52,430 nucleotides of DNA from a virus. Its lineage: Duplodnaviria > Caudoviricetes. The position numbers and the translations under genes were made by a program. Of this stretch, positions 27,879-52,430 are shown piece by piece. The notes beneath the pieces were generated by a model. That model saw only the letters and a list, made by a program, of their open reading frames with translations, was not told the DNA's origin and made no database searches. Location of the stretch: positions 1 to 52,430 of the IMG/VR virus record IMGVR_UViG_3300034065_000062; one strand, written 5' to 3'. Position 1 is the first letter of the stretch. Every line of letters begins with the position of its first letter.

Positions 27879-27908
27879 AAGATAGATTATACTATCATTA
27901 AGGGTATT

Positions 27909-28583: not shown

Positions 28584-28584
28584 G

Positions 28585-29901
28585 TTATCTTTTTCTTTTA
28601 AACAAAGTTTTAAATACGGGATAACATTCCTCAGCTGTTTCTACTATAGATAATGTAACCTTACCAGAGCGAACATTTTCACGAACATAATCATAAGCTT
28701 CCCAAAGATTTGTATCTCTGGAACCACCTCTGGCTTGACCAACCTCAATATAACTAAACAGGTTTACCTTGTCTAATAATGGATGATCACCAGTTAATCT
28801 GTCAACCACCAAATCATTATCATCATCCCAGTTATCGCCATCAGAAGCATGGCAAACATAGATGTTGGTTTCATTTGGATCATACCGTTCTTTAATGATA
28901 TTGTCTACCATTTCTAGAGCTGGAGATACCGAAGTACCACCATTCATACGAGTACTAAAGAAGTCTTCTTCAGACATTTCAAAAGCTTCAGTTGTATGGG
29001 CAATAAAGACCAATTCCGTTGTTGCATATCGACGTTGAATGAATGCATATAATAATGCAAACCATCGACGAGCAATGATCTTTTTCTCTTCATCCATGGA
29101 ACCAGAAATATCCATTAAGAAGAACAGAACACTGTCAACTGTCTTAAGTGGTTTGGCTTCTTTTTTACGATAGCGAAGATCTGATTTATCAAAGCCCGCA
29201 ATGAATGCAATCTTTTTATCCAGCTCTGCTAATCGGACATAAATTTCTGCAACCCGAACTTTTAATTGTTCAGCGGCAATATATTCAGTTCCTGGAATCC
29301 GTTCTTCAAGCATACGAAGTTCTAATTCAAGGGCTTCCTTTTCAGTCTTATAAGGACCTTGTAAAGCTTTACGACGACCAAGAGATTGTTTATAAGTACG
29401 GATAACACTTAACTGTGCTGGGTTTCCTGTTGTGGAGAAACCTGCAGGTTGGAATGTATTATCAGCTTTATCAGTGAATTTTTCGTTGACAAGATTTGGT
29501 AGTTCACAGTCTTCAAAGAATAAGTCTAAGAATTCACCACGAGCAATATTAACGATGAATTCATCTTCGCCATTTTCACCGGGTCCACCTTTACCACCGG
29601 CGCCACCTTCATCATCTTCTGGAATACGAACCTTATCACCACGTTGGTATTCTGTATTACCAATGATGACGGCTGTTTGTTGACCATCATTTGCATAGGC
29701 AAACCATGGTTCTTCTAATGCTGTACCTGCAACTTTAACAGGTGAGTCACTTTTTGCTTTTGTACCACTGACACCACCTTGACCAATATTTTGTGGCACG
29801 GATGATTTGATGAATGATTTAATACGTTTAATCAACTTCTGTCTATTTTCAGAAGACTTACCTTGTCCAGCTTTCCTGCGATCGATTAGGATAAAAGCCA
29901 T
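28585..29901 (-). CDS. YeaH/YhbH (DUF444) vWA-domain protein
   Basis: IDRR N-terminus, FFEDCELPNL, DLRY, MDISGSM MIDAS motif, ASDGDNW. Confidence 0.92.
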   Translation of the reverse strand: MAFILIDRRKAGQGKSSENRQKLIKRIKSFIKSSVPQNIGQGGVSGTKAKSDSPVKVAGTALEEPWFAYANDGQQTAVIIGNTEYQRGDKVRIPEDDEGGAGGKGGPGENGEDEFIVNIARGEFLDLFFEDCELPNLVNEKFTDKADNTFQPAGFSTTGNPAQLSVIRTYKQSLGRRKALQGPYKTEKEALELELRMLEERIPGTEYIAAEQLKVRVAEIYVRLAELDKKIAFIAGFDKSDLRYRKKEAKPLKTVDSVLFFLMDISGSMDEEKKIIARRWFALLYAFIQRRYATTELVFIAHTTEAFEMSEEDFFSTRMNGGTSVSPALEMVDNIIKERYDPNETNIYVCHASDGDNWDDDNDLVVDRLTGDHPLLDKVNLFSYIEVGQARGGSRDTNLWEAYDYVRENVRSGKVTLSIVETAEECYPVFKTLFKRKR

Positions 29902-29903
29902 TG

Positions 29904-30143
29904 TTATTCCTTTTTAATACTACTATTCAACTGGTCACGAAGTGCACAGGCATAAAGCATCTTCTGTTCATTATCCCAGAAGTCACCAGTAATTTCCATA
30001 GCAACATCATGATTGAAATCATCAGATTGAAGCACAAGTCTATCCAATCCTTCTTCACTACGTGGTGGCCATACATCAATCTGCCACGGGCCTTTATCAG
30101 CCACATTATAGTAGTCTTCGGGTTTAGGTATTTGTGCTGTCAT
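29904..30143 (-). CDS. Hypothetical protein (79 aa)
   Basis: AAGGA RBS; lies between prkA and the yeaH-like gene. Confidence 0.65.
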   Translation of the reverse strand: MTAQIPKPEDYYNVADKGPWQIDVWPPRSEEGLDRLVLQSDDFNHDVAMEITGDFWDNEQKMLYACALRDQLNSSIKKE

Positions 30144-30179
30144 TATATCCTTAGTTAAAGTTTAATATTTTGCGAAACA

Positions 30180-30207
30180 GCTATATTCACCGAACAGTGA
30201 ATATAGC
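30180..30207. terminator. Hairpin after prkA
   Basis: GCTATATTCAC-CGAACA-GTGAATATAGC perfect 11-bp stem. Confidence 0.55.
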
Positions 30208-30221
30208 CATTTTAGCGAATA

Positions 30222-32183
30222 TTAGTTTTTACGGTTGTTTGCCCACCATGCAACAATCAAACGTACTTGTGCTGCTGTGTAACCTTTGGTAATCATACGA
30301 GACATAAAATCATCATGTTTCTTCTGTTCATCAGATGAACCTTTTGGATTGAAAGAAACAATCGGCATAATGTCTTGAGTTGCTGAAAACATTTTCTTTT
30401 CAATAACGATCTTGATTTTTTCATATTGATTCCATGCTGGTGCACGACCTTCATTTTTTGCACGATGACGTAATACATAGTGAACGATGTCATTACGGAA
30501 ATCTTTTGCATTAACAATTGAAGCACTCTTTTCAAGTTCTTCCAAGCGTGAATTCAAGTTGTTACGATCCAACAAGACATGGGTTTCTGGATCACGTACA
30601 GTTGTTTCATCGATCCATGCTTCAGCAAACAAGCAGTAACGTTCAAACATTGTCTGACCGAAATCTGAGTAAGATTCCAAGTATGCAATACGAAGTTCTT
30701 TGTCAATAAATTCAAAGAAGCGTGGTTGTACCCATGATTTGATGTAATCAAGATAACGTTCATGATCTTCTTGTGGAAGATGTTCACGTTTTAATGCTTC
30801 TTCAAGAACATACATCAAGTCAATTGGATTGGCCTGAACTTCTTCTGGGCGCAAGTTAAAAGTTTGTGAAAGGATTTTGAATGCAAAACGAGTTGATAAT
30901 CCATTCATACCTTCATCAACACCTGCAGCTTGTTTGTATTCTTCATACGGTTTAGCCATTGGCATTGTATCTTTTACATTTTCACCATTATAGACTTTCA
31001 TCTTGGCGAACAATGTGCTATTTTCCGGTTCACGAAGACGTGTAAGAACCATAAATTCAGCAAGGGCTTTCAATGTTTCTGGTGCACAAGGTGCATTATG
31101 AAGACTTGATACGGTCAACATTTTTTCATAAATCATACGTTCTTCATCAGTACGTAAGCAATATGGAACGTTAACAATATAGACCCGATCCAAGAAAGCT
31201 TCATTGGATTTATCATTACGGAATTTAAACCATTCTGCTTCATTTGAGTGAGCGCAGATAATACCAGTATAAGGCATAGCTGGAATATTTTCAGTACCAT
31301 TGTAGTTGTGTTCTTGTGTTGCCATCAACAATGGATTCAATGTTTTGATATTGCTTTTAAACATTTCAGCAAATTCCATGAAACATTGGCTTGTACGATT
31401 CAAACCACCTGAATAGGAATAGCTGTATGGATGATTCTGTGAATAAGTTTCCAATTTACGGATATCAGTTTTACCAATAAGGACTGAAACGTCTTGGTTA
31501 TTTTCATCACCCGGTTCAACCTTCATGATACCAATTTGTGAATCTTTGTTTGGATACATTTTAACAACAGTAAATTTGGTCCAGTCACCATCAAACTCTT
31601 TCAGTTTTTCTTGAGCCCAACCAGAAGATACAGTGTTCAAATAACGAACATCGATACCAAAGGTTTTTTGAAGTTCTTCACCATGTTCATGTTTGTTGAA
31701 CAAGCCAAGTGGGCTTTCAAACATAGGTGAAATTTGTAGCTCTGGATTCTTTTCTGAAGAATCTTTAAGAACGTAGATTGGATGCTGTTGCATCAATTCT
31801 TTGAGACGTTCAACTAATGAAGATTTTGAAGAACCGACTGGTCCTTTAAGATACAAAATCTGTTTGGATTCTTCCAAGCCTTGTGCGAAATGGCGGAAGT
31901 ATGCAACTAAACGTTCAATGGTTTCTTCAATACCATAGAAGTCTTTGAATGCTGCATATTGACGAATTTTTTTATTTGAGAAGATGCGGGAGAGATGTGC
32001 ATCTTGAGAAGTATCAATAACAGTTGGTTCACCAATTGCTGCTAACATACGCTCGGCGGCATTTGCATATGCCATTTTATCAGTTTTGCACAAGTTGAGA
32101 TATTCTTCAATTGTCATTTCTGTATTGGTAGCAAATTTCTTTGCAAAGGTAGATTTAAAACTATTACTAAGTTTCGTATTCAT
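30222..32183 (-). CDS. prkA: PrkA/YeaG AAA+ serine protein kinase
   Basis: AAERML.AIGEP, KQILYLKGPVGSSKSS Walker A, EPGDENNQD, EF.EMFK, AHSNE, GLSTRFAFK. Confidence 0.93.
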   Translation of the reverse strand: MNTKLSNSFKSTFAKKFATNTEMTIEEYLNLCKTDKMAYANAAERMLAAIGEPTVIDTSQDAHLSRIFSNKKIRQYAAFKDFYGIEETIERLVAYFRHFAQGLEESKQILYLKGPVGSSKSSLVERLKELMQQHPIYVLKDSSEKNPELQISPMFESPLGLFNKHEHGEELQKTFGIDVRYLNTVSSGWAQEKLKEFDGDWTKFTVVKMYPNKDSQIGIMKVEPGDENNQDVSVLIGKTDIRKLETYSQNHPYSYSYSGGLNRTSQCFMEFAEMFKSNIKTLNPLLMATQEHNYNGTENIPAMPYTGIICAHSNEAEWFKFRNDKSNEAFLDRVYIVNVPYCLRTDEERMIYEKMLTVSSLHNAPCAPETLKALAEFMVLTRLREPENSTLFAKMKVYNGENVKDTMPMAKPYEEYKQAAGVDEGMNGLSTRFAFKILSQTFNLRPEEVQANPIDLMYVLEEALKREHLPQEDHERYLDYIKSWVQPRFFEFIDKELRIAYLESYSDFGQTMFERYCLFAEAWIDETTVRDPETHVLLDRNNLNSRLEELEKSASIVNAKDFRNDIVHYVLRHRAKNEGRAPAWNQYEKIKIVIEKKMFSATQDIMPIVSFNPKGSSDEQKKHDDFMSRMITKGYTAAQVRLIVAWWANNRKN

Positions 32184-34535: not shown

Positions 34536-34787
34536 TTAATTAGGTGGTTTATGTAGATGATCAATACCCATTTGAATATCGAAATCACTGTAGCCTTGCA
34601 TCTCTTTAAGAGTTTGTTCTTCTTCAGCTACAGCTTTATCTAATTCGGCTTGACGGATACGTCTTATCTCTAATGCGATTTCATAATCCGTATATCCATC
34701 TAATTCCATGGACATACGAATATATGATTCTTCTGTGGCCTGATCGGGTTTTAATGCCGACCAGACTTTAGAAAGCCAATTCCACAT
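34536..34787 (-). CDS. Hypothetical protein (83 aa)
   Basis: Start overlaps the Ro60 stop; repeated GY(T/S)D.(E/D)I motif. Confidence 0.65.
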   Translation of the reverse strand: MWNWLSKVWSALKPDQATEESYIRMSMELDGYTDYEIALEIRRIRQAELDKAVAEEEQTLKEMQGYSDFDIQMGIDHLHKPPN

Positions 34788-36397
34788 TAGAAGGACTGAA
34801 TCAATTGTGGTGCTGCTGAATCAAAACCAGCGATATCCAACATACCAGGATCTTTTGGATCGGCAATTGTAAACTTGGTTACTGATGTACCACAAACAAT
34901 CAATTTAGCATCTTTGACATGCTTTTGACGGTAACGTGATAATGCTTCAACAGGTTGCATCTTACCAGCATATGTTTCATTGTCGGTAATAACAACAAAT
35001 TTACTTACATTATCCATACCATTGTCAAGTGCATGACGCATTGGCAATGAGCAATCAGTTGAACCCCAATTGAATTTTTGCATAACAGCCAATACAGCAT
35101 CTAAGCGCATTGATGGAGAGATTTTTAATTCACTCATTCTGTTATTGAAACCACCAATCCAATGGTTAGGTTCACGCTTAGCAACAGCCAAAGCCATAAC
35201 TGCAGCAACTTCAGCTGAAGAAAGGTTTGGAGCACTTGAAACACTTGAGCTCCACATAGAACCAGAACAGTCAACACCAATCAAATGACCAAGGCCAGTT
35301 GATTCAATGAAATTGAATGATTCATAGAAAACATCATTCAATGCATCAAGGATTTGTTGAGATGGAGTCCAAGTTAATGAACCCTTATCACCATGACCGG
35401 TTTTGTATTGGTTGAATGCATTCAAAATAGTGATTGGGTGTACTCGACCACTCTTGATTGCTTCTACATCAGTTAACTTACCAACAATAAGTTGAAGATC
35501 ATTTGACATTGGCTTGATTACACCAATATTAGTCAACTGACCAAGCTTACGGATAAGTGCTGTCATACCCATTGTGTTAACAAGAGCCGACATAACTGCT
35601 GGGTTACGATGCAATTCAGTTGGAATCATTTCCCATGTGATATCAGGATTTGATTCAATCAATTTGATTGCAGTCTTAGCATCAACACCACGCTTCAATG
35701 TTTCAAAGTCAATAAGCAATTGTGGAACTGCTGTATTAGCTTCAATAGCTTCGGCACCCTTTACAGAGTAACGGAACAAAGCAGATTGAACATCATTAGT
35801 TGGTTTAACATGAGCTAAACGCAAGACGTCACGATGTGCCCAACCATTTCGTGATTGGTACTTTAACAATTGAACTGCCAACTTGTCTTCTTTACGCTTT
35901 GTGTACCAGGAAGCAATACCACGTTTTGCAGCGGCATTCCACTTACCAAGTTCATCAATTGCGGCAACAAATTGGAACAAATGAGTACCGATACGGCAAA
36001 CTTTATGCAAGGATGCGTATGCTGCGGCAACAGTTGCTTCATCACCATTGATTGCACATAGTGCAAGAGCAAAGACGGCTGAATCATTTTTAGGTGCACG
36101 GCCAGCTTGTGAGATTTCCACAATACGATTTACTGTTTTGATACCATCAAGTTTAATACAAGCCAATACATTCTTAGCAGCATCTTTGGTAAGTTTTTCA
36201 ACTGATGCATAGTAGAATGGTGATTCACTACCCAAGATTAGGAAACGATCCAAGTAGGACCATGCATCTAATTTGAATACGAATCCACCCGCATGGTTTT
36301 TAACCATTTCGGCTTCACGACCTGAAAGAGGTTGTGTTTGTGGTGTTACTGTTTTTGTTGGCTTTGTTGATACGGTGTCTGAATAGCTAAATGACAT
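34787..36397 (-). CDS. rsr: Ro60/Rsr (TROVE + vWA) RNA-binding protein
   Basis: NHAGGFVF..D....LDRFLILGS, RIGTHLFQF, KYQSRNGW.HRD.LRL.H, VHP, DCSGSM MIDAS, TDCSLPM, ITDNET, IADP.D.GMLDI.GFD. Confidence 0.95.
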   Translation of the reverse strand: MSFSYSDTVSTKPTKTVTPQTQPLSGREAEMVKNHAGGFVFKLDAWSYLDRFLILGSESPFYYASVEKLTKDAAKNVLACIKLDGIKTVNRIVEISQAGRAPKNDSAVFALALCAINGDEATVAAAYASLHKVCRIGTHLFQFVAAIDELGKWNAAAKRGIASWYTKRKEDKLAVQLLKYQSRNGWAHRDVLRLAHVKPTNDVQSALFRYSVKGAEAIEANTAVPQLLIDFETLKRGVDAKTAIKLIESNPDITWEMIPTELHRNPAVMSALVNTMGMTALIRKLGQLTNIGVIKPMSNDLQLIVGKLTDVEAIKSGRVHPITILNAFNQYKTGHGDKGSLTWTPSQQILDALNDVFYESFNFIESTGLGHLIGVDCSGSMWSSSVSSAPNLSSAEVAAVMALAVAKREPNHWIGGFNNRMSELKISPSMRLDAVLAVMQKFNWGSTDCSLPMRHALDNGMDNVSKFVVITDNETYAGKMQPVEALSRYRQKHVKDAKLIVCGTSVTKFTIADPKDPGMLDIAGFDSAAPQLIQSF

Positions 36398-36441: not shown

Positions 36442-36789
36442 AATAACATGACTTTCTAAGTCTCCATAACGAAAAGTTGAAATCGGAGATTTCGATATAC
36501 CCCGGTAAGACGCCAATATTGTCCGGCTTACTTACTCATTGAATATACCTACACTAATTTTTCTGACTAGTAACATACTTGATATTCCATCAAGACTATT
36601 CTCCTTAATGCCCGTATTGAGAAGTGACGGTTAATACTATCCCAGTAAAGGGCTGCTGTGGCATATTAATACCCTATTTTCTAAGTGGCTTGTCTTTCAA
36701 CTTGCATACTGTTTTAATAGGTGCATATTTTTCACGTTTGAGATAACCAATGTTCGGTCGGTTAAGAAGACTTAAAAAATCATGTTATT
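36442..36789 (-). ncRNA. Large (~350 nt) Y-RNA-like structured RNA
   Basis: Ends pair over >20 bp with G-U pairs on the minus strand; AACCG-N12-UUAUC motif at 36740-36763; many internal hairpins; directly upstream of Ro60. Confidence 0.7.
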
Positions 36790-36811
36790 TAAAAAAGTTT
36801 GTGTTACATGA

Positions 36812-36928
36812 TATAGATTTAGAAATGAAACAAAGAAGTGTTAATCGTCGTTTGGTTTATTCTGTCGGGCTTTCACTCAACCGATTAAAAGTGGATAATC
36901 AATTAACGTTCGGTTTCTTAAATCTATA
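36812..36928 (-). ncRNA. Y-RNA-like RNA (~117 nt)
   Basis: Terminal stem UAUAGAUUUA/UAAAUCUAUA; GAAAC-C-GAA paired to UUC-UUU-GUUUC (bulged helix); upper stem GUUAAUUG/CGAUUAAC followed by AUUAUCC. Confidence 0.75.
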
Positions 36929-41757: not shown

Positions 41758-42429
41758 TTACCACAACAAATCAAAGTTGCCAGAAAGTACTTTACTAACC
41801 TGTGCAGTCTTTCCAGTTATATGATCTGTAACAGTATTATCTTGGAATCTATAAGTACGGACCTTATCCCCACGCATACCTGAACCAACTTGATTCTTTC
41901 TATCTTGAGAAACCAACTGCTGTTCCTTGCTGAAGTGTGTGGAATTTAGTTTTAATAATAAAGCTTGGGTAGCTTCATTAAGTGAATTTTCCCGACTACG
42001 ACATTGTGCAGTTGAGACAATACCGGTTTTGATATGTGTAAGACGGCATGAGTTCTGGTGTTTATTGCGATGTTGACCACCACTACCAGTACCAGAGTAC
42101 CATTCTATTTTAAAGTCTTTTTGATTGAACTCGATCGCTTTTATTTCAGTGGGATCAATAACAGCAACTGTTACAGTTGAAGTATGAACTCTACCTTTGC
42201 GTTCGGTTGGGGGAGTGCGTTGGATTCTTTGCCCACCTTTTTCATTATCCAATCCAGATAAATCCTTGCCTTCTACTTCTATGGATATGACACCCTTAGT
42301 AGTTTCGACAAGGTGGTGCTTTCAGCCAACTCGTTGGAAGTGTTTAATGTAGGAGTTAGCTAAATCTTTTGAGAAGAGTTTAGCATCATCACCGCCTTCA
42401 GCAAATCTGATTTCTAGTATTTTTTTCAT
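41758..42429 (-). CDS. RF1-type peptide chain release factor lacking domain 1, with in-frame TGA at codon 36 (42322-42324)
   Basis: AAGGA RBS, MKKILEIRFAEGGDDAKLF...QRVG*KHHLV...; QRTPPTERKGRVHTS (PxT motif), GSGGQHRNK, KVRTYRF. Confidence 0.85.
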
Positions 42430-43894: not shown

Positions 43895-45370
43895 TCAATA
43901 GGTCACTAAGAAATTTTCAAATGACCAAGTATTAGTTTTATTTAATTCAGGTTTGAATAGCATATTGCGTTCATCAAGTGGAGTCCAATCTGATTGGATA
44001 CTTGCGATCGGCCCAAGATAAGGTTTAGCCACTTCAAGAATTTCTTCAAATGGTAAATCTTCTGGTTCTTTATATCCCTCTTTTGGATTATTTAACATCC
44101 AAACAATAACACCTAATAAAGAAGCAACTACTTGTACTGATGTTGCACTTTCATTAGGAATTAATTCACGGGCTTCATTGATGTCTAATTGACTACCATA
44201 CCACCAAGCATTACAGCCATGTCCCATTAGAAGAACACCAAGTTCATCACGGCCACTAACTATTTCATCTTTGACAATACGTTTAGCATGTTGCATTTCT
44301 AATTCTTGGCCACGGAATTCATGGACAGAAACAATAGCACAATCAGCTGGTTGATATGTATAGTGAACAGTTGGACGGAAAGTGACATTAGTACCATTAC
44401 TTACAGAGAAGTATTCGGAAATAGTAACAGCTTCAGAGTGCTGTACTAACATACCATTATAACTACCACCACGTGGAACCCATGATTTAATTAATGTAGC
44501 AACACCTGGTTGTGTTAAGAAGATAGCATTACGAGGACCTGATTGATGAGCAACACCATTCTCTGGAAGTTTATCTTCATGTGTACCCCAACCTAATTCA
44601 GATGGAGCACGACCTTCTGCCCAGAAGCCTTCACAGCTCCAAGTATTAGTAAACTCACCCATGACTTTCGGTCGATCGATAACTTGTGTATCACGTTCAG
44701 CAATGTGTACAACTTTGGTACCAGTCTTCTCCATAAGTTTTGCCCATTCTTCACGGGACTTAGGAACTTCAGTTTTCATACCCATTGCTTCAGCAATATC
44801 TAATAGAGCAGCTTTTGTAAAGTGGGTAACTAAACCTGGATTTGCACCATGAGTAACACAGGAAGTTGCGGCTCCTTTATTTTTATATGGAGCAACAGCT
44901 TTACGTATTTCTTGATGAGCAAAGTAAAGAGTACGTTCTTCCATTTTAGGAATAGATTCATCTGGTTCATCTTCCCAACGTTCTATACTGGTATCACAGT
45001 ACATAACATCATGATCAAGACACCATTTAACAATAGCAATACCATCAATATTAAGACTAACATTGATGAGTAAATCTCCAGCACTTAAGTGTTCTGAGAG
45101 AGTAGAATCTAAATTACTTTTAACAATTTTTAATGGGATGTATTTGATATCTGTATCACTATGGCGGGTTTTAAACAATTGAGCATGTTCACCAGCTTCA
45201 ATGACAGTGATTTGATTTGGGTTGATCCCAATGTGACGTAATACTAAAGGAAGGATGGCTTGACCGACGGAACCGTATCCGATGATTAAAATGCGACCTT
45301 TATGATCAATGTACTTTTTGTGCAAAGGCGCAGATAGTGTTGTTGTTTGTGCTATTTCGTGGAGCTTCAT
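43895..45370 (-). CDS. hss: Homospermidine synthase
   Basis: IIGYGSVG Rossmann motif, HGANPGLV.HF, VHIAERDTQ, NTWS.EG, ELGWGTHE, H.EA.TI, RPTVHY.Y.P, G.DELGVLL. Confidence 0.92.
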   Translation of the reverse strand: MKLHEIAQTTTLSAPLHKKYIDHKGRILIIGYGSVGQAILPLVLRHIGINPNQITVIEAGEHAQLFKTRHSDTDIKYIPLKIVKSNLDSTLSEHLSAGDLLINVSLNIDGIAIVKWCLDHDVMYCDTSIERWEDEPDESIPKMEERTLYFAHQEIRKAVAPYKNKGAATSCVTHGANPGLVTHFTKAALLDIAEAMGMKTEVPKSREEWAKLMEKTGTKVVHIAERDTQVIDRPKVMGEFTNTWSCEGFWAEGRAPSELGWGTHEDKLPENGVAHQSGPRNAIFLTQPGVATLIKSWVPRGGSYNGMLVQHSEAVTISEYFSVSNGTNVTFRPTVHYTYQPADCAIVSVHEFRGQELEMQHAKRIVKDEIVSGRDELGVLLMGHGCNAWWYGSQLDINEARELIPNESATSVQVVASLLGVIVWMLNNPKEGYKEPEDLPFEEILEVAKPYLGPIASIQSDWTPLDERNMLFKPELNKTNTWSFENFLVTY

Positions 45371-45441
45371 TTGTTAATCCAGATGATAAAAGTATATCAT
45401 ATTTATTGAATTAACAAGGTGATGTAGAATTTAGTAAGATT

Positions 45442-45515
45442 TGGTGCTCTGTACCGGTTACAATCCGATGCCTAATCCATACCAGGGATTTGTACTGTCA
45501 TTATACTAACAGAGC
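45442..45515 (-). tRNA. tRNA-Thr(GGT), atypical T-loop
   Basis: Cloverleaf, loop CUGGUAU, encoded CCA; T-loop AUUGUAA. Confidence 0.75.
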
Positions 45516-45521
45516 TTTGTT

Positions 45522-45593
45522 TGGAACCCAACTGCAGAGTTGAACTGCATCAACAGGCTTAGAAGGCCCATGTCCGAATCCCTCGGGTCGGGT
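45522..45593 (-). tRNA. tRNA-Arg(TCT), non-canonical short D-arm
   Basis: Acceptor ACCCGAC/GUUGGGU, loop CUUCUAA, T-loop UUCAACU, CCA. Confidence 0.75.
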
Positions 45594-45597
45594 ATTG

Positions 45598-45828
45598 TTA
45601 TGTGCTAAGTTTATTAAACTTATCTGTTGCCATTTTTAATTCACGATGAAGTTTATCCTGATTTCTACGGGCCTTATTCATCTGTACTTGAACAGCACCA
45701 ATTATTAGTTCAGCTTCTTTATATTTCTTACGAGCAACTTTATATTCCTGTTCGGCTTTATTATAAGCAGATGTTTTGGCTGCTTTAATAGCTCGTTCTT
45801 TAGCTGCGGCTTCATGATCAAATTGCAT
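45598..45828 (-). CDS. Small coiled-coil protein
   Basis: 76 aa, Ala/Lys-rich helical sequence. Confidence 0.65.
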   Translation of the reverse strand: MQFDHEAAAKERAIKAAKTSAYNKAEQEYKVARKKYKEAELIIGAVQVQMNKARRNQDKLHRELKMATDKFNKLST

Positions 45829-45830
45829 AA

Positions 45831-46028
45831 TTATTTTTGATAGACCGTTCTTTTACCGGTGATTTCACCAGTCTGAGCATTTTTAATAGTAACAGTTTGT
45901 TTAGAGACTTTCTTGGAATTAATGATACCACCAAGTTTATGATCACGATCATACATATCTCCAAGTTTTAATGGAGAACCAGTAACGACCCCTTTAAAAG
46001 GATCCGGCATTATTTCTCTAACTTTCAT
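45831..46028 (-). CDS. Hypothetical protein (65 aa)
   Basis: GAGG RBS, MKVREI N-terminus, TATAAATA at 46057-46064. Confidence 0.7.
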   Translation of the reverse strand: MKVREIMPDPFKGVVTGSPLKLGDMYDRDHKLGGIINSKKVSKQTVTIKNAQTGEITGKRTVYQK

Positions 46029-46068
46029 ATTACACCTCTAAAATAAGATTATCTCTTATTTATATGTT

Positions 46069-46142
46069 TGGCCTGTCAAGTAGGAATCGAACCCACATCA
46101 AAGCGTTTGGAGTGCCTTATTCTACCACTGAACTATTGACAT
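46069..46142 (-). tRNA. tRNA-Trp(CCA)
   Basis: Loop CUCCAAA, G73, CCA; D-stem GUUC/GAAU (A24); A31-C39 mismatch. Confidence 0.85.
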
Positions 46143-46148
46143 ATAGTA

Positions 46149-46343
46149 TTACTTTTTACGTTCTTTAGGAAAGAACCCAGCACAGCATTCATCTGTTAAA
46201 CTGGCTATTCCTTGTTTATGACCTTCAAGAGATTTACCACAAACTGATATAGTTTTAGTTTTACCAGTAGCAGTTTGTGTCATGACAACATCAAAATCTT
46301 GACCATGCATTACAAAGTCAAATGTGTATTGTGTAGCTAACAT
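46149..46343 (-). CDS. Hypothetical protein (64 aa)
   Basis: GAGG RBS before MLATQY; the track's longer version overlaps tRNAs. Confidence 0.65.
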   Translation of the reverse strand: MLATQYTFDFVMHGQDFDVVMTQTATGKTKTISVCGKSLEGHKQGIASLTDECCAGFFPKERKK

Positions 46344-46358
46344 AATAACCTCTAAAAA

Positions 46359-46432
46359 TGGAGTCGGGTACCGGAGTTGAACCGATCTAAGTGATTTTGC
46401 AGACCACTGCATGGCCGATGTGCTAACCCGAC
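46359..46432 (-). tRNA. tRNA-Cys(GCA)
   Basis: Loop CUGCAAA, U73, CCA. Confidence 0.85.
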
Positions 46433-46438
46433 ATTGTT

Positions 46439-46512
46439 TGGAGTCCCTGGATGGTAACGCGCCACCTTCCATAGTTTTGCAGACTATCGCATTACTTTTA
46501 TGCTACAGGGAC
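46439..46512 (-). tRNA. tRNA-Cys(GCA), second copy, atypical T-loop
   Basis: Loop CUGCAAA, U73, CCA; T-loop CGCGUUA. Confidence 0.75.
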
Positions 46513-46518
46513 ATTATT

Positions 46519-46620
46519 TGGCAGAGGTGGAGGGAATTGAACCCCCATCGAAGGTTTTCCTAAAAATACTATTACGAATATTTTTAGGAGACCCCTATAC
46601 TGCCATTGTACTACACCTCT
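46519..46620 (-). tRNA. tRNA (Trp-type body) with a 28-nt hairpin inserted in the anticodon loop
   Basis: Canonical acceptor, D and T arms, G73, CCA; loop reads CUCC[UAAAAAUAUUCGUAAUAGUAUUUUUAGG]AAA. Confidence 0.7.
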
Positions 46621-46628
46621 ATAATTCT

Positions 46629-46701
46629 TGGCACCCAATGAAGGAGTTGAACCTTCTTACTCAGATTTCGAAGACCTAAGACCGGTTCCGCCGGATCGGG
46701 T
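46629..46701 (-). tRNA. tRNA-Arg(TCG), non-canonical short D-arm
   Basis: Acceptor ACCCGAU/AUUGGGU, loop CUUCGAA, CCA. Confidence 0.75.
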
Positions 46702-46709
46702 ATAAATTC

Positions 46710-46784
46710 TGGTTCCCACTGATGGATTTGAACCATCGACCCACGCGTTATCAACACGGCGCTCTACCACTGAGCTAAGCGGGA
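46710..46784 (-). tRNA. tRNA-Ile(GAT)
   Basis: Canonical D and T arms, loop UUGAUAA, CCA. Confidence 0.85.
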
Positions 46785-46788
46785 ATAG

Positions 46789-46871
46789 TAACAACAAATT
46801 GCTTTTTAGGGCAGGAGCAGTTGAGGGCGTTGTCTTAAAAGGATAATCCTCTGTCGCAAATCCGGTTGTTA
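46789..46871 (-). ncRNA. Small Y-RNA-like element inside the tRNA array
   Basis: Terminal UAACAAC/GUUGUUA stem; AACCG-N16-UUAUCC at 46841-46867; strand is less certain because one alternative stem favours the plus strand. Confidence 0.55.
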
Positions 46872-46936
46872 AATTCTTAATTCTTTACTATAACTAATAA
46901 ATATTCTTATGTAAACATTTATTTATGGAGATTCCC

Positions 46937-47203
46937 ATGACAGCACCAGTTTTAACACCAGTACCAATGTATCCAATTGGATCAGTTATTTATGTTGTAT
47001 CTGCAGCATCTTTTGGTATTGCTATTGCTACAATTACAGCTGTTGATGTTGCAAGTGTAAATCCAACTGCACCACCAGTAATAACATATTCAGTTAGATT
47101 TTCTAACCCAGTACGTTCAGCAAATATTCAACAGTTTGATTCATCAATGGTATTCCCTGATGTAACTACTGCAGTTGCTGCATATGCTCCACTTATTAGT
47201 TAA
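46937..47203 (+). CDS. Hypothetical protein (88 aa), possible virion protein
   Basis: GGAG RBS before the ATG at 46937; TAAATA box upstream; only + strand gene in the tRNA region. Confidence 0.65.
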   Translation: MTAPVLTPVPMYPIGSVIYVVSAASFGIAIATITAVDVASVNPTAPPVITYSVRFSNPVRSANIQQFDSSMVFPDVTTAVAAYAPLIS

Positions 47204-47205
47204 GA

Positions 47206-47386
47206 TATATAAAGTTGTAGTTTGAGACAATACGGTGGGAGTTGCACCACACATTAAGGCCCTGTCCGGGCCTTTTCTTATCTATTAGAAGACATATTTC
47301 AATACAGTCTTTAACCCGTCAAAGTCAATACTATATTGCCAAACCAACCTGTTGCTCGAGTTGACGTGCTGTTACAACTTTATATA
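47206..47386 (-). ncRNA. tRNA/tmRNA-like structured RNA enclosed by a 14-bp terminal stem
   Basis: TATATAAAGTTGTA inverted repeat; inner GGCAAUAU/GUAUUGUC stem, T-arm-like GG-UGCAACU-CC and two internal hairpins. Confidence 0.5.
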
Positions 47387-47444
47387 ACCTAAAAATTACT
47401 CTGTTCGCGTTACGCAAACGAACTACAAAATAGATACAAGAAAT

Positions 47445-47572
47445 TGGTGGTGACGGAAGGGATCGAACCTCCACTAGCCTGTTATGAGTAGGATAATCAA
47501 TAAGCGACCGGTTGAGTTAACAACAAAAAATGCAATCGATGTTTTACTGTGCTGCCATTACACTACATCACC
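47445..47572 (-). ncRNA. tRNA(CAT) carrying a 54-nt Y-RNA-like insertion in the anticodon stem
   Basis: Acceptor GGUGAUG/CGUCACC-A-CCA, D and T arms and loop CUCAUAA all intact; insert carries AACCG-N12-UUAUCC. Confidence 0.75.
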
Positions 47573-47660
47573 ATTTAAATTTTTATCAAAGAACTATTAA
47601 AATCCCAAGATTCAAACTATAAAGAATTATACCATACAGTTTGAATCTTGTATACATCAT

Positions 47661-47990
47661 TTAAACTTTATCTGGATATTTACTATCTAAAAAATCGATA
47701 TAAGCATGTGGGCTCATACCAGGTTCTAATACTTCAACATTCTTGAAACCATTGGCTTCAGTGATTAAACTTTCAGATGCATCAATGGCACCAGCATATT
47801 TGCGGAAACCGGGTTTATTCATCATCTCACCAGTAGCAGGATCAATGGAACCCCATTCAGTCCAATCTGTTTTACTACGATTGTCAATAGGTTCACATGC
47901 ATAAGTTTTACCAGTACGATTTGAATAAACAATAAATCGTCCAGTGTCATCAGTATTAGTTAGGAATTTTGTTCTTAGTTCAGGATTCAT
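47661..47990 (-). CDS. Hypothetical phage protein (109 aa)
   Basis: DTGRFIVYS.RTGKTY..EPI...WG..DPATG motif-rich ORF. Confidence 0.75.
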   Translation of the reverse strand: MNPELRTKFLTNTDDTGRFIVYSNRTGKTYACEPIDNRSKTDWTEWGSIDPATGEMMNKPGFRKYAGAIDASESLITEANGFKNVEVLEPGMSPHAYIDFLDSKYPDKV

Positions 47991-48011
47991 ATAAGGCCTT
48001 ATAGGTTAGGC

Positions 48012-48110
48012 TTAACGAATCAACCCCAGAGCGACTAGCTCTTTACGTGTCTCATCAGTTAAGCGTTGCAATTCATTTATTAGTTTTATTACATATTCTA
48101 ATGAGTACAT
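48012..48110 (-). CDS. Putative micro-ORF (32 aa)
   Basis: AGGTG RBS, MYSLEYVIKLINELQRLTDETRKELVALGLIR*. Confidence 0.45.
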   Translation of the reverse strand: MYSLEYVIKLINELQRLTDETRKELVALGLIR

Positions 48111-48125
48111 TTGGGCACCTATATA

Positions 48126-48611
48126 TTATGATGGTTGTTTAATTTTGTCTAATTCTTTTCTTACCCAAACTCTCGCATCTTTTTGATTATCAAAAATTGC
48201 AATGGGTTTACTACTTTCTGCCCATACTTTCTGTAATATAGGTTTCATTAAATTTGCTGCTATAACTTCATCATCTTTAATTACAAAAGCTGCACATGAT
48301 GAAATGGAATCCTTCATATATTGACTATAGACTTTTAATGCATCTGGTCCCATTTGAACATCTTTTTTAAATGTAGTAATTGCACCAAAAATTTTTGGAA
48401 TTTCTACCGTTTTAATTACTTCATCTCTTATTTCAGTAAGGTGAACAAAAAACTCTTTATTAAATGGACCAGTATATTCATGATAGATAATATCAGATTC
48501 CCACCATCTAGACTGTTCTCCATGTGGTGCAAATGGTGATGTTTTATTAGCATTTAATTTGCTGATAATTTCAGTCCATGATTGTATTGTATTAGGTTTT
48601 TTCTTTTTCAT
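48126..48611 (-). CDS. Hypothetical protein, possibly STAS/SEC14-like fold
   Basis: TGPFN.E...AAFV...IF.N..DA..W pattern; weak family call. Confidence 0.65.
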   Translation of the reverse strand: MKKKKPNTIQSWTEIISKLNANKTSPFAPHGEQSRWWESDIIYHEYTGPFNKEFFVHLTEIRDEVIKTVEIPKIFGAITTFKKDVQMGPDALKVYSQYMKDSISSCAAFVIKDDEVIAANLMKPILQKVWAESSKPIAIFDNQKDARVWVRKELDKIKQPS

Positions 48612-48672
48612 GCTAATATTTATTGCCTGGGAGGCATAATATAACAGTTTTATTGCATGAAGGGTTTGGAAA

Positions 48673-48748
48673 TAAACCTATAGTGGTAGTCGAAAACCAC
48701 ATTGCCAGCTATTAATCCGTCCGCGGAGACATCTCAAATATAGGTTTA
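48673..48748 (-). ncRNA. tRNA-like ncRNA, family copy 1
   Basis: 10-bp terminal stem; UUUGA...GAUUAAUAGCUGGCAAU + T-like arm GUGGU-UUUCGACU-ACCAC; core shared with 50515-50590. Confidence 0.6.
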
Positions 48749-48761
48749 CTTTTTTCATCAT

Positions 48762-48783
48762 AAGTGGGGAAATTTCCCCACTT
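48762..48783. terminator. Hairpin/terminator
   Basis: AAGTGGGGAAATTTCCCCACTT palindrome after the 48803 gene. Confidence 0.55.
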
Positions 48784-48802
48784 TCATCATACTAACCTTC
48801 GA

Positions 48803-49561
48803 TTACACTGGATAGGTTGCAGAAACTGCTGGCCCATAGGTAAGGGTACCTTCAGATTTTTCACCACGGTGATTTTTGTCACAACATTCACCTTTGATAT
48901 TACGGAAACGTAATTCATCAATGGTTTGGCTGTTAATAAGTGCACGAGTGGTATTACCATCATCGACAATCATGTGTTGTGTCTGTGCTGCGGCTAATGC
49001 AGATGCTGCAGATGCAACTTGACCCGCCAATGTAGAAGCTGCAGTGGTTTGCGATGCTGCTAATTGAATTGCTGCAAGAGTTGCATTAAAATTTGCATTA
49101 GTACTTGAAGTTAAAGCTGCAAGTGCTGTTGCATTACTAAAGTTTTGTGATTGACCTGCAATGAAATATGCTGTATCTTGTGCAACTATACGATCAGCAC
49201 TGTTGGCCACATCCGATGAAACTCCCCAAGCACCTCTATTAACATCAACACGTGTATCACTTGCTTCTTTTGCAACTTCTCTACGTGCATCTGATGATTC
49301 TTCTGCGGTTTCTCTACGAATATCTGATTGACCATGAAGTACTTGACTCATATCTACTAAACCTGTTACGGTTCCTGTTACTATATCTGCCATGATTATT
49401 TCCTTTAAAGTATCCGGAATTAACGAGTTCGTATCACCGGAAGTTGAACTTGTAATAGGAGGTACAACAGTATTTAAAATCTGTTCTGGAGAAACAATTT
49501 CTACGGGGGTAGAAACATCTAGAATTGGAACTGAAGGTTCAGTATTTTGAATAACGATCAT
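48803..49561 (-). CDS. Ala-rich coiled-coil hypothetical protein
   Basis: Possible starts at 49561 (AGGTG RBS) and 49393 (AAGGA RBS, MADIV); SD.RRE repeats; C-terminal ECC. Confidence 0.75.
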   Translation of the reverse strand: MIVIQNTEPSVPILDVSTPVEIVSPEQILNTVVPPITSSTSGDTNSLIPDTLKEIIMADIVTGTVTGLVDMSQVLHGQSDIRRETAEESSDARREVAKEASDTRVDVNRGAWGVSSDVANSADRIVAQDTAYFIAGQSQNFSNATALAALTSSTNANFNATLAAIQLAASQTTAASTLAGQVASAASALAAAQTQHMIVDDGNTTRALINSQTIDELRFRNIKGECCDKNHRGEKSEGTLTYGPAVSATYPV

Positions 49562-49570
49562 ATCACCTAT

Positions 49571-49671
49571 TAAACGTAACCTCATAAGAGGCTTTTCAGC
49601 AATCGCTGCTGTATGCGTTTCATGCCGGGCATGAAATACGTTTAAATCCGCGGAAGTAACTTTCTTACTTC
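49571..49671 (-). promoter_or_regulatory. Structured 5' leader (4-way junction plus upstream hairpin)
   Basis: UAAACGUA/UACGUUUA closes three hairpins directly before the RBS; TATAAATA at 49688-49695. Confidence 0.5.
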
Positions 49672-49754
49672 ATTCAATCGTTATTTGTATTTATAGAAAT
49701 GGAATAAAATTCTAAAAAAAAACTTATAATATTAAAAATTATTTTAAATATTTT

Positions 49755-49830
49755 GCGAAGACTAATATGATTGTCTCATCACTTTTTGCCAGCCCGCGGA
49801 CGAATTTACCAGCAAATTATTAGCCCTCAC
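49755..49830 (-). ncRNA. Unidentified small RNA (3-way junction)
   Basis: 13-bp terminal stem with several G-U pairs, two inner hairpins, TATAAATA at 49837-49844. Confidence 0.55.
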
Positions 49831-49882
49831 AAGATATATTTATAGATTTTGAAAATTTAGTAGTGTTTCTTCATGGAAATAT

Positions 49883-49955
49883 TGGCAGGGGTAGTAGGAA
49901 TCAAACCTACGGGTATCTGGCTCAGAACCAAATCCAATCTTCATATCATACCCCA
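49883..49955 (-). tRNA. tRNA-Gln(CTG), atypical D-arm
   Basis: Loop UUCUGAG, T-loop UUUGAUU, CCA. Confidence 0.7.
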
Positions 49956-49961
49956 ACTGTT

Positions 49962-50037
49962 TGGTACCCAGGGTCGGACTCGGACCGACATACTCCCACT
50001 TGTAAGGAGGGCGCTTGAACCTCTCAGCTACCCGGGC
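49962..50037 (-). tRNA. tRNA-Val(TAC)
   Basis: Loop CUUACAA, A73, CCA. Confidence 0.85.
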
Positions 50038-50045
50038 ATAAATTC

Positions 50046-50118
50046 TGGTAAGGGTGGAGAGAATCAAACTCTCTGACATCTGGCTCAAAACCAAATTCGA
50101 TTTTCATATCACACCCCA
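50046..50118 (-). tRNA. tRNA-Gln(TTG), atypical D-arm
   Basis: Paralog of 49883-49955; loop UUUUGAG, CCA. Confidence 0.7.
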
Positions 50119-50122
50119 ACTG

Positions 50123-50479
50123 TTACTGCTTAATTGTATTTTTACAATTATAAAATCTTTCAGACTTAACAACATTAAACTTAGTCAACCATTTCTGTTC
50201 AGTTTTTCTAATTAATGTTGCATCTTCAATAAACTCTAATATTATTCTTTTAAATTGAGTTATTCCATAATGCTCAAATACTCTTTTAAATCTTGATCCC
50301 GATCCTCGATAATCATCATTACAAATACCTTTATGACTACCAATATAAAACATATTTTCTGGTAAACATTTCCACATGTAAATAAAACCAGCATAAGACT
50401 CAGGTCTAGTGACATTGAGTTCTTCATAGTTATCTAATAAGGGATTTGTATGTGTTATGATAAGACGTTTCATAAACAA
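50123..50479 (-). mobile_element. Short GIY-YIG (Seg-like) endonuclease
   Basis: GFIYMW...FYIGSH...Y.GSG...E...FYN; TATAAATA at 50498-50505; inside the tRNA array. Confidence 0.75.
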
Positions 50480-50514
50480 TAATTAGTATTAAACTATTAT
50501 TTATAAAATAATTT

Positions 50515-50590
50515 TGGCTCCCGAGGCGTAAGTCGAAGTACGCATTACCAACTATTAATCGAGGGCGCGCCGGCCTGATCAAACTCGAGA
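50515..50590 (-). ncRNA. tRNA-like ncRNA, family copy 2, with encoded CCA
   Basis: Acceptor-like UCUCGAG/CUCGGGA-G-CCA; T-like arm GCGUA-CUUCGACU-UACGC; no canonical D or anticodon arm. Confidence 0.6.
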
Positions 50591-50598
50591 ATTGATTC

Positions 50599-50673
50599 TG
50601 GTGGTGATAGTTGGAGTCGAACCAACGTAGCCTACTTTATGAGAGTAGTTCATAACCATTCTGACATATCACC
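50599..50673 (-). tRNA. tRNA(CAT): elongator Met or Ile2
   Basis: Loop CUCAUAA, paired G1-C72, A73, CCA. Confidence 0.8.
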
Positions 50674-50674
50674 A

Positions 50675-51355
50675 TTATTTCTTTATACCTAAAACCCAAC
50701 CATCATTTAGATAGCTATCAATTTCAGATATTTGTATTCGTTTTGTTATTCCTTCTTTTGATACACATTTATTTCGTTTACCAAAATTTGAATTCTTTTC
50801 ACCTTGCTGGTGATTACTTTTCCTAAGAGTATTTATTCTTTTAATATTAGTATCTACTGAATTAACTTTTTTAATTGCTTCTGAGGAAAAATAACTAACT
50901 GATTTTCTACCATCTTTATATTGTTGCTTAAGAGTAATTGACATATTTACTGATTTTTTCTTAACCCAATCAGGATCAGTATTTTTTAATTCTATCTGTT
51001 TTAAATGAGAGTTTATAGCACGATCTTTTAATTGTTGTTTTGATAAAAATTTTGTAATAAATTCCCAACCACCTTCACCACCAATTTTAAGATTAATACA
51101 TAAAGATTCTTTTAAAATATCTTCATTAACTAATTGTGCTTCTCTAACTTTAAGTTCTGCTCTTGAATTAAGAAATTCAAGTATTTCTTTTTTATGGTTC
51201 TCATCGCCATATTTGCGTCTTGAGTAACCCAAAATTTTCTCACTTCCAAGATATCCATCTTCCAAGTTACTAGTTGAATGCATACCAATATAAAACTTAC
51301 CAGTAATTAAACAAGTAGTTTTATAGATATAGTGATACTTCTTTTGTTTGCGCAT
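50675..51355 (-). mobile_element. GIY-YIG Seg-like homing endonuclease
   Basis: HYIYKTT..ITGKFYIGMH...YLGS...E...NL..GG.GG; likely start MRKQKK at 51355 (AAGGA RBS); TATAAATA at 51375-51382. Confidence 0.85.
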
Positions 51356-51405
51356 TTTGTATTCCTTAAACATATATTTATAAGAATAGTACAAAATGGC
51401 GAATG

Positions 51406-51474
51406 ACCCACCACCCAGAGTCGAACTGGGCATTCAACGTTCGTAGCGTCAAAGTTATGTCCCATAATGGTGAG
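51406..51474 (-). tRNA. tRNA-Arg(ACG), non-canonical short D-arm, no encoded CCA
   Basis: Acceptor CUCACCA/UGGUGGG, loop CUACGAA, T-loop UUCGACU. Confidence 0.7.
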
Positions 51475-51958
51475 ATTGTTTTTCTATTAACCTTTCAAGA
51501 GGAGCAACATATTCTATCCAGGTCACATCTTGCACAAAGTCAGGATGTTTAAATATTGTACCTACAGTTTCAAATCCTTGATTTATAAAATAAGGACCTA
51601 CTTCTGTTTCTCTATCCTGCGGAACCAATTCAATTAATTCTTTAGCATCAGGATATTTAGCAATAAGGATTTCTGCTAATCTTTTTAAAGCAAGACTTGA
51701 ATAACCTTTTCCCTGTTCATCAGGAACTATTCCATGCCATGCTAATATAATACGGTTATCAACTAGATAATATCCAGTCAATCCAATAGGTTTATCATAC
51801 CAATTAAGTATTAGAAATTTTTCATTATCATCTAGTTCGGGATTCTCTAAAGTATAAAGACAATCTTCTTCAACTTCAGCAGATCGTTTTTCCCAAATAG
51901 ATTTAAATCCACGATAAGCAAATGGATTACTTATTAATTTTTCTAAACTTACGGACAT
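51455..51958 (-). CDS. GNAT-family N-acetyltransferase
   Basis: IGLTGY...LAWHGIVPDEQGKGYSSLAL...YF..QGF acetyl-CoA-binding motif. Confidence 0.75.
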   Translation of the reverse strand: MSVSLEKLISNPFAYRGFKSIWEKRSAEVEEDCLYTLENPELDDNEKFLILNWYDKPIGLTGYYLVDNRIILAWHGIVPDEQGKGYSSLALKRLAEILIAKYPDAKELIELVPQDRETEVGPYFINQGFETVGTIFKHPDFVQDVTWIEYVAPLERLIEKQSHHYGT

Positions 51959-51976
51959 ATATTATCCTATGTGTTA

Positions 51977-52050
51977 TGGTGCTTCTTGTAGGAATCGGAC
52001 CCACATTTATCGGTAATCGGCCGATCATTCTACCATTGAATTAAAGAAGC
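51977..52050 (-). tRNA. tRNA with aberrant anticodon loop CCGAUUA (nominal GAT; Thr-like body)
   Basis: Full cloverleaf and CCA, but C33 and U37. Confidence 0.6.
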
Positions 52051-52056
52051 ATTGTT

Positions 52057-52131
52057 TGGTGCCCAGACACTAGAATCGAACTGTGATCTATTCCTTACAA
52101 GAGAATCGTTCTACCATTGAACTATAAGGGC
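52057..52131 (-). tRNA. tRNA-Thr(TGT)
   Basis: Loop CUUGUAA, CCA. Confidence 0.8.
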
Positions 52132-52143
52132 ATAATTTAAAAC

Positions 52144-52219
52144 TGGCTGACCAGGCAGGGCTCGAACCTGCGACAAACGGATTAACAGTCCGCTACTCTA
52201 CCAACTGAGTTACAAGTCA
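52144..52219 (-). tRNA. tRNA-Asn(GTT)
   Basis: Canonical; loop CUGUUAA, G73, CCA. Confidence 0.9.
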
Positions 52220-52226
52220 ATTGTAT

Positions 52227-52305
52227 TGGCGATCCGTATCGGATTTTAACCGATGATCTTCTCCGTGACAGGGAGACGCATTGGGACGGGCTATGCTAAC
52301 GAACC
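52227..52305 (-). tRNA. tRNA-Asp(GTC), atypical D and T loops
   Basis: Loop CUGUCAC, G73, CCA; T-loop UUAAAAU. Confidence 0.78.
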
Positions 52306-52328
52306 ATATATTTATAAAATATTATGTG

Positions 52329-52403
52329 CTCCGGGAACTGGGAACGATCCAGTCTAATCATGATTAACAGTCATGCGGTTGCCACCAAGGCGCCTCCCCC
52401 GGA
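52329..52403 (-). tRNA. Atypical tRNA-Asn(GTT) without CCA, inside an extended stem
   Basis: Loop CUGUUAA; flanks ATTATGTGC/GCACATAAT extend the acceptor stem (52321-52412). Confidence 0.6.
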
Positions 52404-52430
52404 GCACATAATACTTCTACTACTCAATAA

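Follow-up and report, generated by a model that had tools for sequence, protein, structure and literature searches.

Which RNA is made by a gene that has all the parts of a transfer RNA (tRNA) and carries, within its anticodon stem, a further arm of 54 nucleotides (nt), and what is this arm for? The gene lies on the minus strand at positions 47445-47572 of a 52,430-nt stretch of phage DNA (IMG/VR record IMGVR_UViG_3300034065_000062), and this whole stretch is referred to as the window. The window is a 52-kilobase (kb) fragment of an uncultured virus record, for which a completeness of 15% was estimated by CheckV, and the full genome was thus put at roughly 350 kb. It was matched in peat metagenomes among public sequencing runs, and its source is a giant soil phage. 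The gene probably makes a tRNA-shaped relative of the Y RNAs, whose inserted module would be a docking handle for the Ro60 protein of the phage. This proposed protein partner, of 536 amino acids with TROVE and Ro60 vWA domains, is encoded on the same strand at 34787-36397.

The gene is 128 nt long and encodes its own CCA end. It scored 38.3 bits with the Rfam tRNA model (RF00005, gathering score 29), covering model positions 1-71 with a local insertion of roughly 60 nt, and 74.1 bits with R1, a covariance model built from six homologous tRNA-with-insert sequences. The 5' tRNA part (47547-47572, minus strand, 26 nt) consists of the acceptor strand GGUGAUG, U8 and A9, the D arm GUGU-AAUGGCA-GCAC, A26 and G27. 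The 3' tRNA part (47445-47492, minus strand, 48 nt) continues with CC-UA, the loop CUCAUAA, CAGGC, a 4-nt variable loop UAGU, the T arm GGAGG-UUCGAUC-CCUUC, the acceptor strand CGUCACC, A73 and CCA. The cloverleaf is thus above the family threshold, and U8, A14, G18 and G19, the UUCGAUC T loop and the encoded CCA are all present in the sequence, together with two features relevant for charging, the CAU anticodon and A73. The anticodon loop has the canonical 7 nt, and the stem pair 31:39 is A.C. The 5' strand of the anticodon stem is split by the 54 nt between G27 and C28, so that an uninterrupted 5-base-pair (bp) stem is not found.

The insert itself (47493-47546, minus strand) follows G27. 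It begins with a 5' linker UAAAAC (47541-47546), which leads from the anticodon stem to a helix P1 and of which AAAC was kept in 7 of 8 aligned rows. The linker is followed by a strand Y, AUCGAUUGCAUUUUUUGUUG (47521-47540), containing the 5' halves of P1 (AUCGAU) and of a second helix P3 (GUUG); by the loop UUAACU that caps P3 (47515-47520); and by a strand X, CAACCGGUCGCUUAUUGAUUAU (47493-47514), containing the 3' halves of P3 (CAAC) and P1 (AUUGAU) and the conserved AACCG and UUAU, all on the minus strand. An earlier note on this DNA had claimed that removal of the 54 nt leaves a normal 74-nt tRNA with the loop CUCAUAA and CCA, and this is exact: it agrees with the minus-strand reading and with 74-nt tRNA-Met(cat) calls made after deletion. 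The order that the note gave for the insert, with the 3' strand first, then the UUAACU loop and the other strand, and with a CC supplied by the anticodon stem, also agrees with the sequence.

With default settings the 128-nt gene was not called by ARAGORN. The parse obtained in intron mode, Asp(gtc) i(30,33), was dropped as implausible, its loop being without U33. When the insert was deleted in silico, a tRNA call was obtained in 37 of 168 deletion windows, including 14 calls of tRNA-Met(cat), of which 7 had 74 nt, and 14 of tRNA-Val(tac) from shifted windows. For annotation this means that such genes are missed by tRNA finders or called as intron-bearing or with a wrong anticodon. The element is not an assembly artefact, since a part of it (within 47362-47512) is identical in a contig from another peat sample and study. 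A promoter-like site (TATACA, a 17-nt spacer and TG-TATAAT, with 10 of 12 positions matching) lies at 47626-47654 on the minus strand, about 54 nt upstream of the RNA 5' end; this is weak evidence, as 3 such sites were found in the region against a shuffle mean of 2.8, which is no excess over the shuffles.

The insert is a conserved structured module and not junk. In a model-fitted alignment (A3, 7 distinct rows, which leans towards the model), 97.6% of the cells in P1 (8 bp) and P3 (4 bp) paired, compared with 1-61% when the partners were slid, and four pairs were changed on both sides; the observed values were reached by 0 of 500 shuffles. With a MAFFT alignment (A1) the pairing was 95.2%. 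Both helices were also predicted independently by RNAalifold, 5 of whose 13 predicted pairs were compensatory, and compensatory changes were present in the anticodon and T stems of the tRNA exons of the homologues.

The homologues were found by pattern scans of IMG/VR and of metagenome contigs of JGI, amid chance matches in coding sequence. Across the copies the X strand takes the form AACCG..RUUGRUUAUC and the Y strand the form CGAY..UUUUGUU. Six further distinct tRNA-shaped genes carry a homologous insert at this position, two with CAU, three with GUA and one with an irregular body. They are spread over records and loci G001/G002/L038, L037, L039 and G008 and thus over at least three other giant-phage lineages. 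The insertion point varies slightly within the anticodon stem (27/28, 28/29 or 29/30). One phage, represented by L027, L034 and L038, has the insert in a tRNA-Tyr(GUA) and also in a tRNA(CAU) (L034 7885-8015). Variants of the tRNA-Tyr in L037 and L039 have the anticodon-stem pair 28:42 and one T-stem pair changed on both sides. In G008, a complete 343-kb genome with terminal repeats, GUA and CAU copies stand in tandem, and the D arm of the CAU chimera is identical to that of the window chimera. The GUA copies keep their long variable arm, and anticodon loops, discriminator bases and CCA are conserved across the copies. The AACCG/UUAUC motif named in the earlier note was kept in the homologous inserts, both parts of it in 7 of 7 copies.

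The covariance search proposed in that note for insert-bearing tRNAs of Ro60-encoding phages was carried out with R1. In Ro60-encoding G008 it added a third chimera with a different tRNA body and an irregular loop; at E <= 0.1 it gave no match in the whole records of six relatives (G003-G007 and G009), where the best score was that of G006 (16.3 bits, E 0.29). The only other match of R1 in the window was to one of two RNAs upstream of Ro60 (16.1 bits, E 0.047), described below as winA. When the 128 nt were compared by blastn with 14 syntenic loci in relatives (L004-L017), only short matches to tRNA arms were returned; a distant blastn search against 50,697 GenBank phages matched an ordinary tRNA-Ile only, and IMG/VR contained 0 exact matches to a 24-mer taken from the X strand. 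A first, degenerate X pattern matched 18 IMG/VR loci, of which L027 and L034 were real; the others were regarded as chance (13 copies of one coding sequence; L018, L019 and L033 in coding-like context; L029). Matches at L036 and L057-L058, which are without tRNA context, and 7 matches among 185,579 species genomes, none of which had tRNA context or Ro60, were likewise read as chance. The element is thus rare, yet conserved across diverged phages and in three tRNA bodies.

A clue to its role comes from other copies of the two strands. In the window the X pattern AACCGNNCGNNNATTGRTTATC has three copies, all on the minus strand: one in the tRNA insert (47492-47513) and two (36894-36915 and 36742-36763) in the 590-nt intergenic region upstream of Ro60. 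Three matches were reached in 0 of 100 shuffles, a value that is descriptive only because the pattern was written from these copies. The two intergenic copies belong to stand-alone RNAs on the minus strand. The first, winA (36814-36926), lies upstream of Ro60 on the same strand and is 113 nt long, with the order X then Y, a terminal stem formed by its ends and CCGAACG in X; the second, winB (36447-36784), lies directly upstream of Ro60 and is 338 nt long, with a 19-bp terminal stem and again X before Y. Five more stand-alone RNAs were recognised, namely L034c, L049c, a further small RNA in the tRNA array of G008, and RNAs of roughly 320-360 nt, homologous to winB, upstream of Ro60 in G008 and in G012. 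winB and the Ro60-upstream RNA of G012 share GCAAGUUGAAAGACAAGCC.

The 7 tRNA-inserted and 7 stand-alone copies make 14 instances, each of which contains exactly one X and one Y. All 7 of the tRNA-inserted copies have Y ahead of X, and all 7 of the stand-alone ones have X ahead of Y. When they are read in a single fixed register, pairing at P1 positions 0-3 and at P3 positions 0-2 is kept in 14 of 14 instances. Among the swaps, AU is replaced by GC (9 versus 5), and a change of AACCG to AGCCG or GACCG is matched by one of GUU to GCU or GUC. P3 continues into the long terminal stem made by the RNA ends in the stand-alone copies, while it is capped by a 6-nt loop in the tRNA copies. The earlier claim of a circularly permuted Y module thus holds structurally. 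Small stand-alone module RNAs lie within tRNA arrays, at L034 8030-8172 (plus strand), L049 71-207 (minus strand) and L056 about 7955-8100 (minus strand); in two of the small RNAs a T arm is accompanied by a D-like arm, whose loop contains GG, and an acceptor stem is absent.

It has been described that Y RNAs are identified by their position near Ro60 on the same strand and by a shared motif (Chen 2014, PMC4201824; for the phage phiLo, PMC12135203). In all 3 of the Ro60-encoding records examined (G000, which is the record of the window, G008 and G012), stand-alone copies are found on the strand of Ro60 in the intergenic region immediately upstream of the gene; these make up four of the 7. winA and winB are 50-530 nt upstream of Ro60, which is within the published distance of about 4 kb, as is also the case for the copies in G008 and G012. 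The window chimera is on the strand of Ro60 at a distance of 11.0 kb, against the published limit of about 4 kb; in both G000 and G008 a chimera precedes Ro60 by about 11.0 kb on its strand, and the Ro60 proteins of the two are 73% identical, the gene upstream being homologous too. Co-occurrence was tabulated for 10 records, which are related and mostly fragments. Ro60 and the module were found together in 3 records, Ro60 without the module in 0, neither in 6 and the module without Ro60 in 1 (G001/G002). The Ro60-less relatives G003-G007 and G009, of which G006 is 100% complete, gave 0 of 6 matches to R1 at E <= 0.1. By hand calculation, the 3 Ro60 records would all be found by chance among the 4 with the module with a probability of 4/120, which for related and mostly fragmentary records is a hint only. 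In the search for related loci with the window Ro60 protein no locus was obtained, and the Ro60 proteins of GenBank phages, mostly actinophages, had <= 40% identity. The anatomy of the gene, the conservation and covariation of its insert, the strand permutation and the link to Ro60 loci are computational results. Since the same module is found, permuted, at the base of the Ro60-upstream RNAs, it is most likely a Ro60 docking handle.

As we picture it, the product would be an intact tRNA(CAU) body, having the acceptor stem with encoded CCA, the D and T arms with their elbow nucleotides and the 7-nt loop. From the 5' strand of its anticodon stem the 54-nt arm would branch off with P1, an internal loop containing AACCG and a U-run, and the capped P3. 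In the permuted order, and with P3 opening into the RNA ends, this module forms the basal stem of the non-coding RNAs that lie immediately upstream of Ro60. The RNA might then work in the manner of YrlA, with Ro60 sitting on the stem and the tRNA domain acting as effector or tether. Unlike YrlA it would be a real open-ended tRNA, which may be matured by RNase P/Z and may be charged or act as a tether.

The comparison with YrlA (RF02553; PMC4201824; 10.1101/312249) is central to this picture. In both RNAs a tRNA D/T-arm domain is joined to a stem that has an asymmetric internal loop, both are found in Ro60-encoding genomes, and the layout is the same from the outer stem through the loop, the inner stem and a YUAY-like UUAU to the tRNA domain. 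YrlA has been likened to a tRNA that is circularly permuted, its acceptor stem being closed and a free CCA lacking (Wang 2018, 10.1101/312249). Its stem is formed by the two ends of the RNA and its acceptor is closed by a loop, without CCA or an anticodon loop, whereas the phage chimera has an open acceptor with CCA, keeps the anticodon hairpin and bears a capped stem module branching from the anticodon stem. The chimera departs from the YrlA topology by having Y ahead of X, the loop UUAACU on P3 and an open acceptor with CCA; the stand-alone RNAs have the Y RNA layout described for YrlA, and the chimera is the inverse. The inverse topology asserted in the earlier note is in this respect in agreement with Chen 2014 (PMC4201824) and Wang 2018 (10.1101/312249). 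In Mycobacterium smegmatis an RNase P-cut YrlA is described whose tRNA-like part gains a CCA 3' end (10.1101/312249); it is a processing product of a permuted RNA, whereas the phage gene encodes the open acceptor, the CCA and the anticodon loop.

The nearest phage system is that of the Thermus phage phiLo (PMC12135203), where two Ro60-binding Y-like RNAs, Yrl1 and Yrl2, lie upstream of the phage Ro60 and are placed like winA and winB; they are stand-alone RNAs, and a module-bearing tRNA is not described in the available text. In the window, winA has ACCGAACG, which agrees with 5 of 6 fixed positions of the published Y RNA motif GNCGAAN0-1G, while the other copies vary there; CGAA is present in both winA and winB. 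The permuted tRNAs of red algae and of an archaeon are precursors that are re-joined by the splicing machinery into normal tRNAs. Such circularly permuted tRNA genes (cited in 10.1101/312249) resemble the phage module in having the same parts in two circular orders; in the phage both orders appear to be end products. In searches of PubMed Central and bioRxiv no description of a complete tRNA with a Y stem module was found. The only YrlA match in the window (22.8 bits, 52074-52192, minus strand) is an artefact that spans two adjacent tRNAs, joining a T arm from the first with a D arm from the second, and it mirrors the published idea that YrlA originated from a dimeric tRNA transcript.

Several points weigh against a Ro60-docking Y RNA relative and should be set beside this evidence. 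With the Rfam YrlA model (gathering score 69 bits) no match was obtained at the element or at 36447-36926 with E <= 10, although a permuted module could not be matched by this model anyway, and the large Ro60-adjacent RNAs (36447-36926) had no Rfam match. The motif GNCGAAN0-1G, reported near the 5' end of Y RNAs (Chen 2014, PMC4201824), is kept in the insert (ACCGGUCG) at 3 of 6 fixed positions. The minimum-free-energy fold was no more stable than those of shuffles, the z-scores being 0.09 (whole RNA) and -0.27 (insert). G001 (70% complete) and G002 (31% complete) contain the module and had no TROVE match; neither did they match the gene adjoining Ro60 in G008 or the 16-kb region around the G008 Ro60 gene, so this part of the genome may itself be missing. 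In G008, five of the six module copies are 11-165 kb from Ro60. Binding of the module by Ro60 is what we infer from adjacency and co-occurrence only, and the few lineages known are all related, so that the covariation counts are small and the co-occurrence table is weak. Of the interpretation given in the earlier note, the complete tRNA(CAU) shape with an inserted module whose strands recur in reversed order beside Ro60 has stood; its further ideas of chargeability, a Ro60-controlled switch and an evolutionary intermediate are conjectures.

A bolder form of the proposal, which we hold to be doubtful, is that these genes make genuine chargeable tRNAs (of Met/Ile type with CAU and of Tyr with GUA) provided with a Ro60 handle, which would couple the Ro60 RNA-surveillance ring to aminoacyl-tRNA partners and would represent a living step in the origin of Y RNAs from tRNAs. 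If this were true, the coupled partners could be synthetases, EF-Tu, the ribosome or host tRNA-cutting defence nucleases, and the order of events would be a grafting of the Ro-binding arm into the anticodon stem first, followed by circular permutation and loss of the acceptor end. Known Y RNAs mimic tRNAs and have the acceptor stem closed, and the binding partners of their tRNA-like domain and their origin from tRNAs are questions of the field. Here the stem module is seated on complete tRNAs of defined identity (CAU, GUA) with CCA, alongside stand-alone versions and Ro60 in the same phages. The system can be tested directly, by the binding of Ro60 to the module, by charging, and by the tRNA-binding proteins that are brought to Ro60.

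The alternative that survives best, though we consider it unlikely, is a tRNA(CAU) that functions in decoding and whose arm has a purpose unrelated to Ro60; the Ro60-adjacent RNAs would then merely reuse a stable module. The arm could be a shield of the anticodon stem against host tRNA-cutting defence nucleases or could bind another phage or host factor. Such a role would fit the conservation of anticodon loops, discriminator bases, CCA and the long variable arm of the GUA copies, the position of module copies in tRNA arrays far from Ro60, the one module-bearing record without a Ro60 match, and the other extra arms and inserts often seen in tRNAs of the relatives. It fits less well with the ordinary paralogue present in each array, namely tRNA-Met at 50599-50673 in the window and a normal tRNA-Tyr in L037, L038 and L039. 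In the third G008 copy the loop is irregular and tRNA calls were obtained with the anticodon AUC only, which suggests that decoding is not conserved. The ribosome would moreover have to tolerate a 54-nt branch at position 27/28, and the module stands upstream of Ro60 in 3 of 3 Ro60 records.

Short inserts in the tRNA genes of huge phages, highly conserved where present, have been reported for Lak megaphages as 'enigmatic' introns (PMC6784885); they are read as introns in or near the anticodon loop and have no link to Ro60, whereas the present insert has a module in common with Ro60-adjacent RNAs. That the 54 nt are an intron of this kind, excised to give a normal 74-nt tRNA-Met, appears improbable. 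Predicted introns in phage tRNAs have this precedent (PMC6784885), removal of the 54 nt restores a canonical 74-nt tRNA, and the anticodon loop of a second tRNA in the window contains 28 extra nt. On the other side, neither RtcB nor a tRNA-splicing endonuclease (PF01974, PF01139) was found in any of 3 phage records, including the complete G008, and inspection of the junctions revealed no bulge-helix-bulge motif (3-nt bulges flanking a 4-bp helix); because of these missing elements an intron is unlikely. Known self-splicing group I introns are far longer than the 54-nt insert, and no Rfam intron or ribozyme match was obtained in 45000-52430 at E <= 10. The insertion point, at 27/28 to 29/30, is within the stem and not at 37/38, and the module is a permanent part of the stand-alone RNAs. 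A dead tRNA gene with a small selfish or recombined insertion and no function is hardly credible: the unremarkable fold stability and the RNA reads within 46300-47800, which cover 46940-47072 only and not the element (none of the public runs spans the full gene), would suit it, while the conservation of the insert across diverged phages and three tRNA bodies, the compensatory changes in the insert helices and the tRNA stems, and the identical sequence in an independent sample speak against it.

Some further features were observed around the element. Downstream of the chimera there is a GC-rich hairpin (47219-47293, minus strand) with a weak Tymo_tRNA-like match (21.4 bits), which scores as terminator-like on the plus strand. 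Of the stretch 46300-47800, only a 133-nt piece located between the tRNA clusters (46940-47072) recurs in a contig of a peat metatranscriptome, where it is flanked on either side by adaptor sequence; this piece could represent a small RNA or DNA that was carried over. In the second insert-bearing tRNA of the window (46519-46620, minus strand), the 28-nt insert forms with anticodon bases a perfect 10-bp hairpin in the anticodon loop. Once it is removed, the anticodon reads CCU (Arg) or, in another register, CCA (Trp), and the insert has no sequence in common with the X/Y module.

Elsewhere in the window, an open reading frame with an RF-1 domain (41758-42252, minus strand) has an N-terminus that matches the last 28 PCRF positions only, so that the gene seems to be interrupted upstream. 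At 26362-32183 there is a bacterial gene trio of PrkA, DUF444 (YeaH-like) and a SpoVR-like protein; the window PrkA had no match in G001, G002 and G008. The relatives at loci L004-L016 have tRNA arrays of up to 39 genes in 12 kb, where many tRNAs that are normally short (Gln, Met, Lys, Trp, Asn, Cys, Glu) reach 83-90 nt and have long variable arms (e.g. L004 1800-1889; L005 3589-3675 and 5420-5507). Other tRNA inserts of 37-94 nt, which were not matched by R1, were seen at L034 9964-10100 and 11918-12086, L015 8084-8261, L009 1839-1968 and L014 6839-6967. Within the tRNA array of one relative, a GOLLD RNA was recognised with 201 bits (L007 7278-7695, plus strand).
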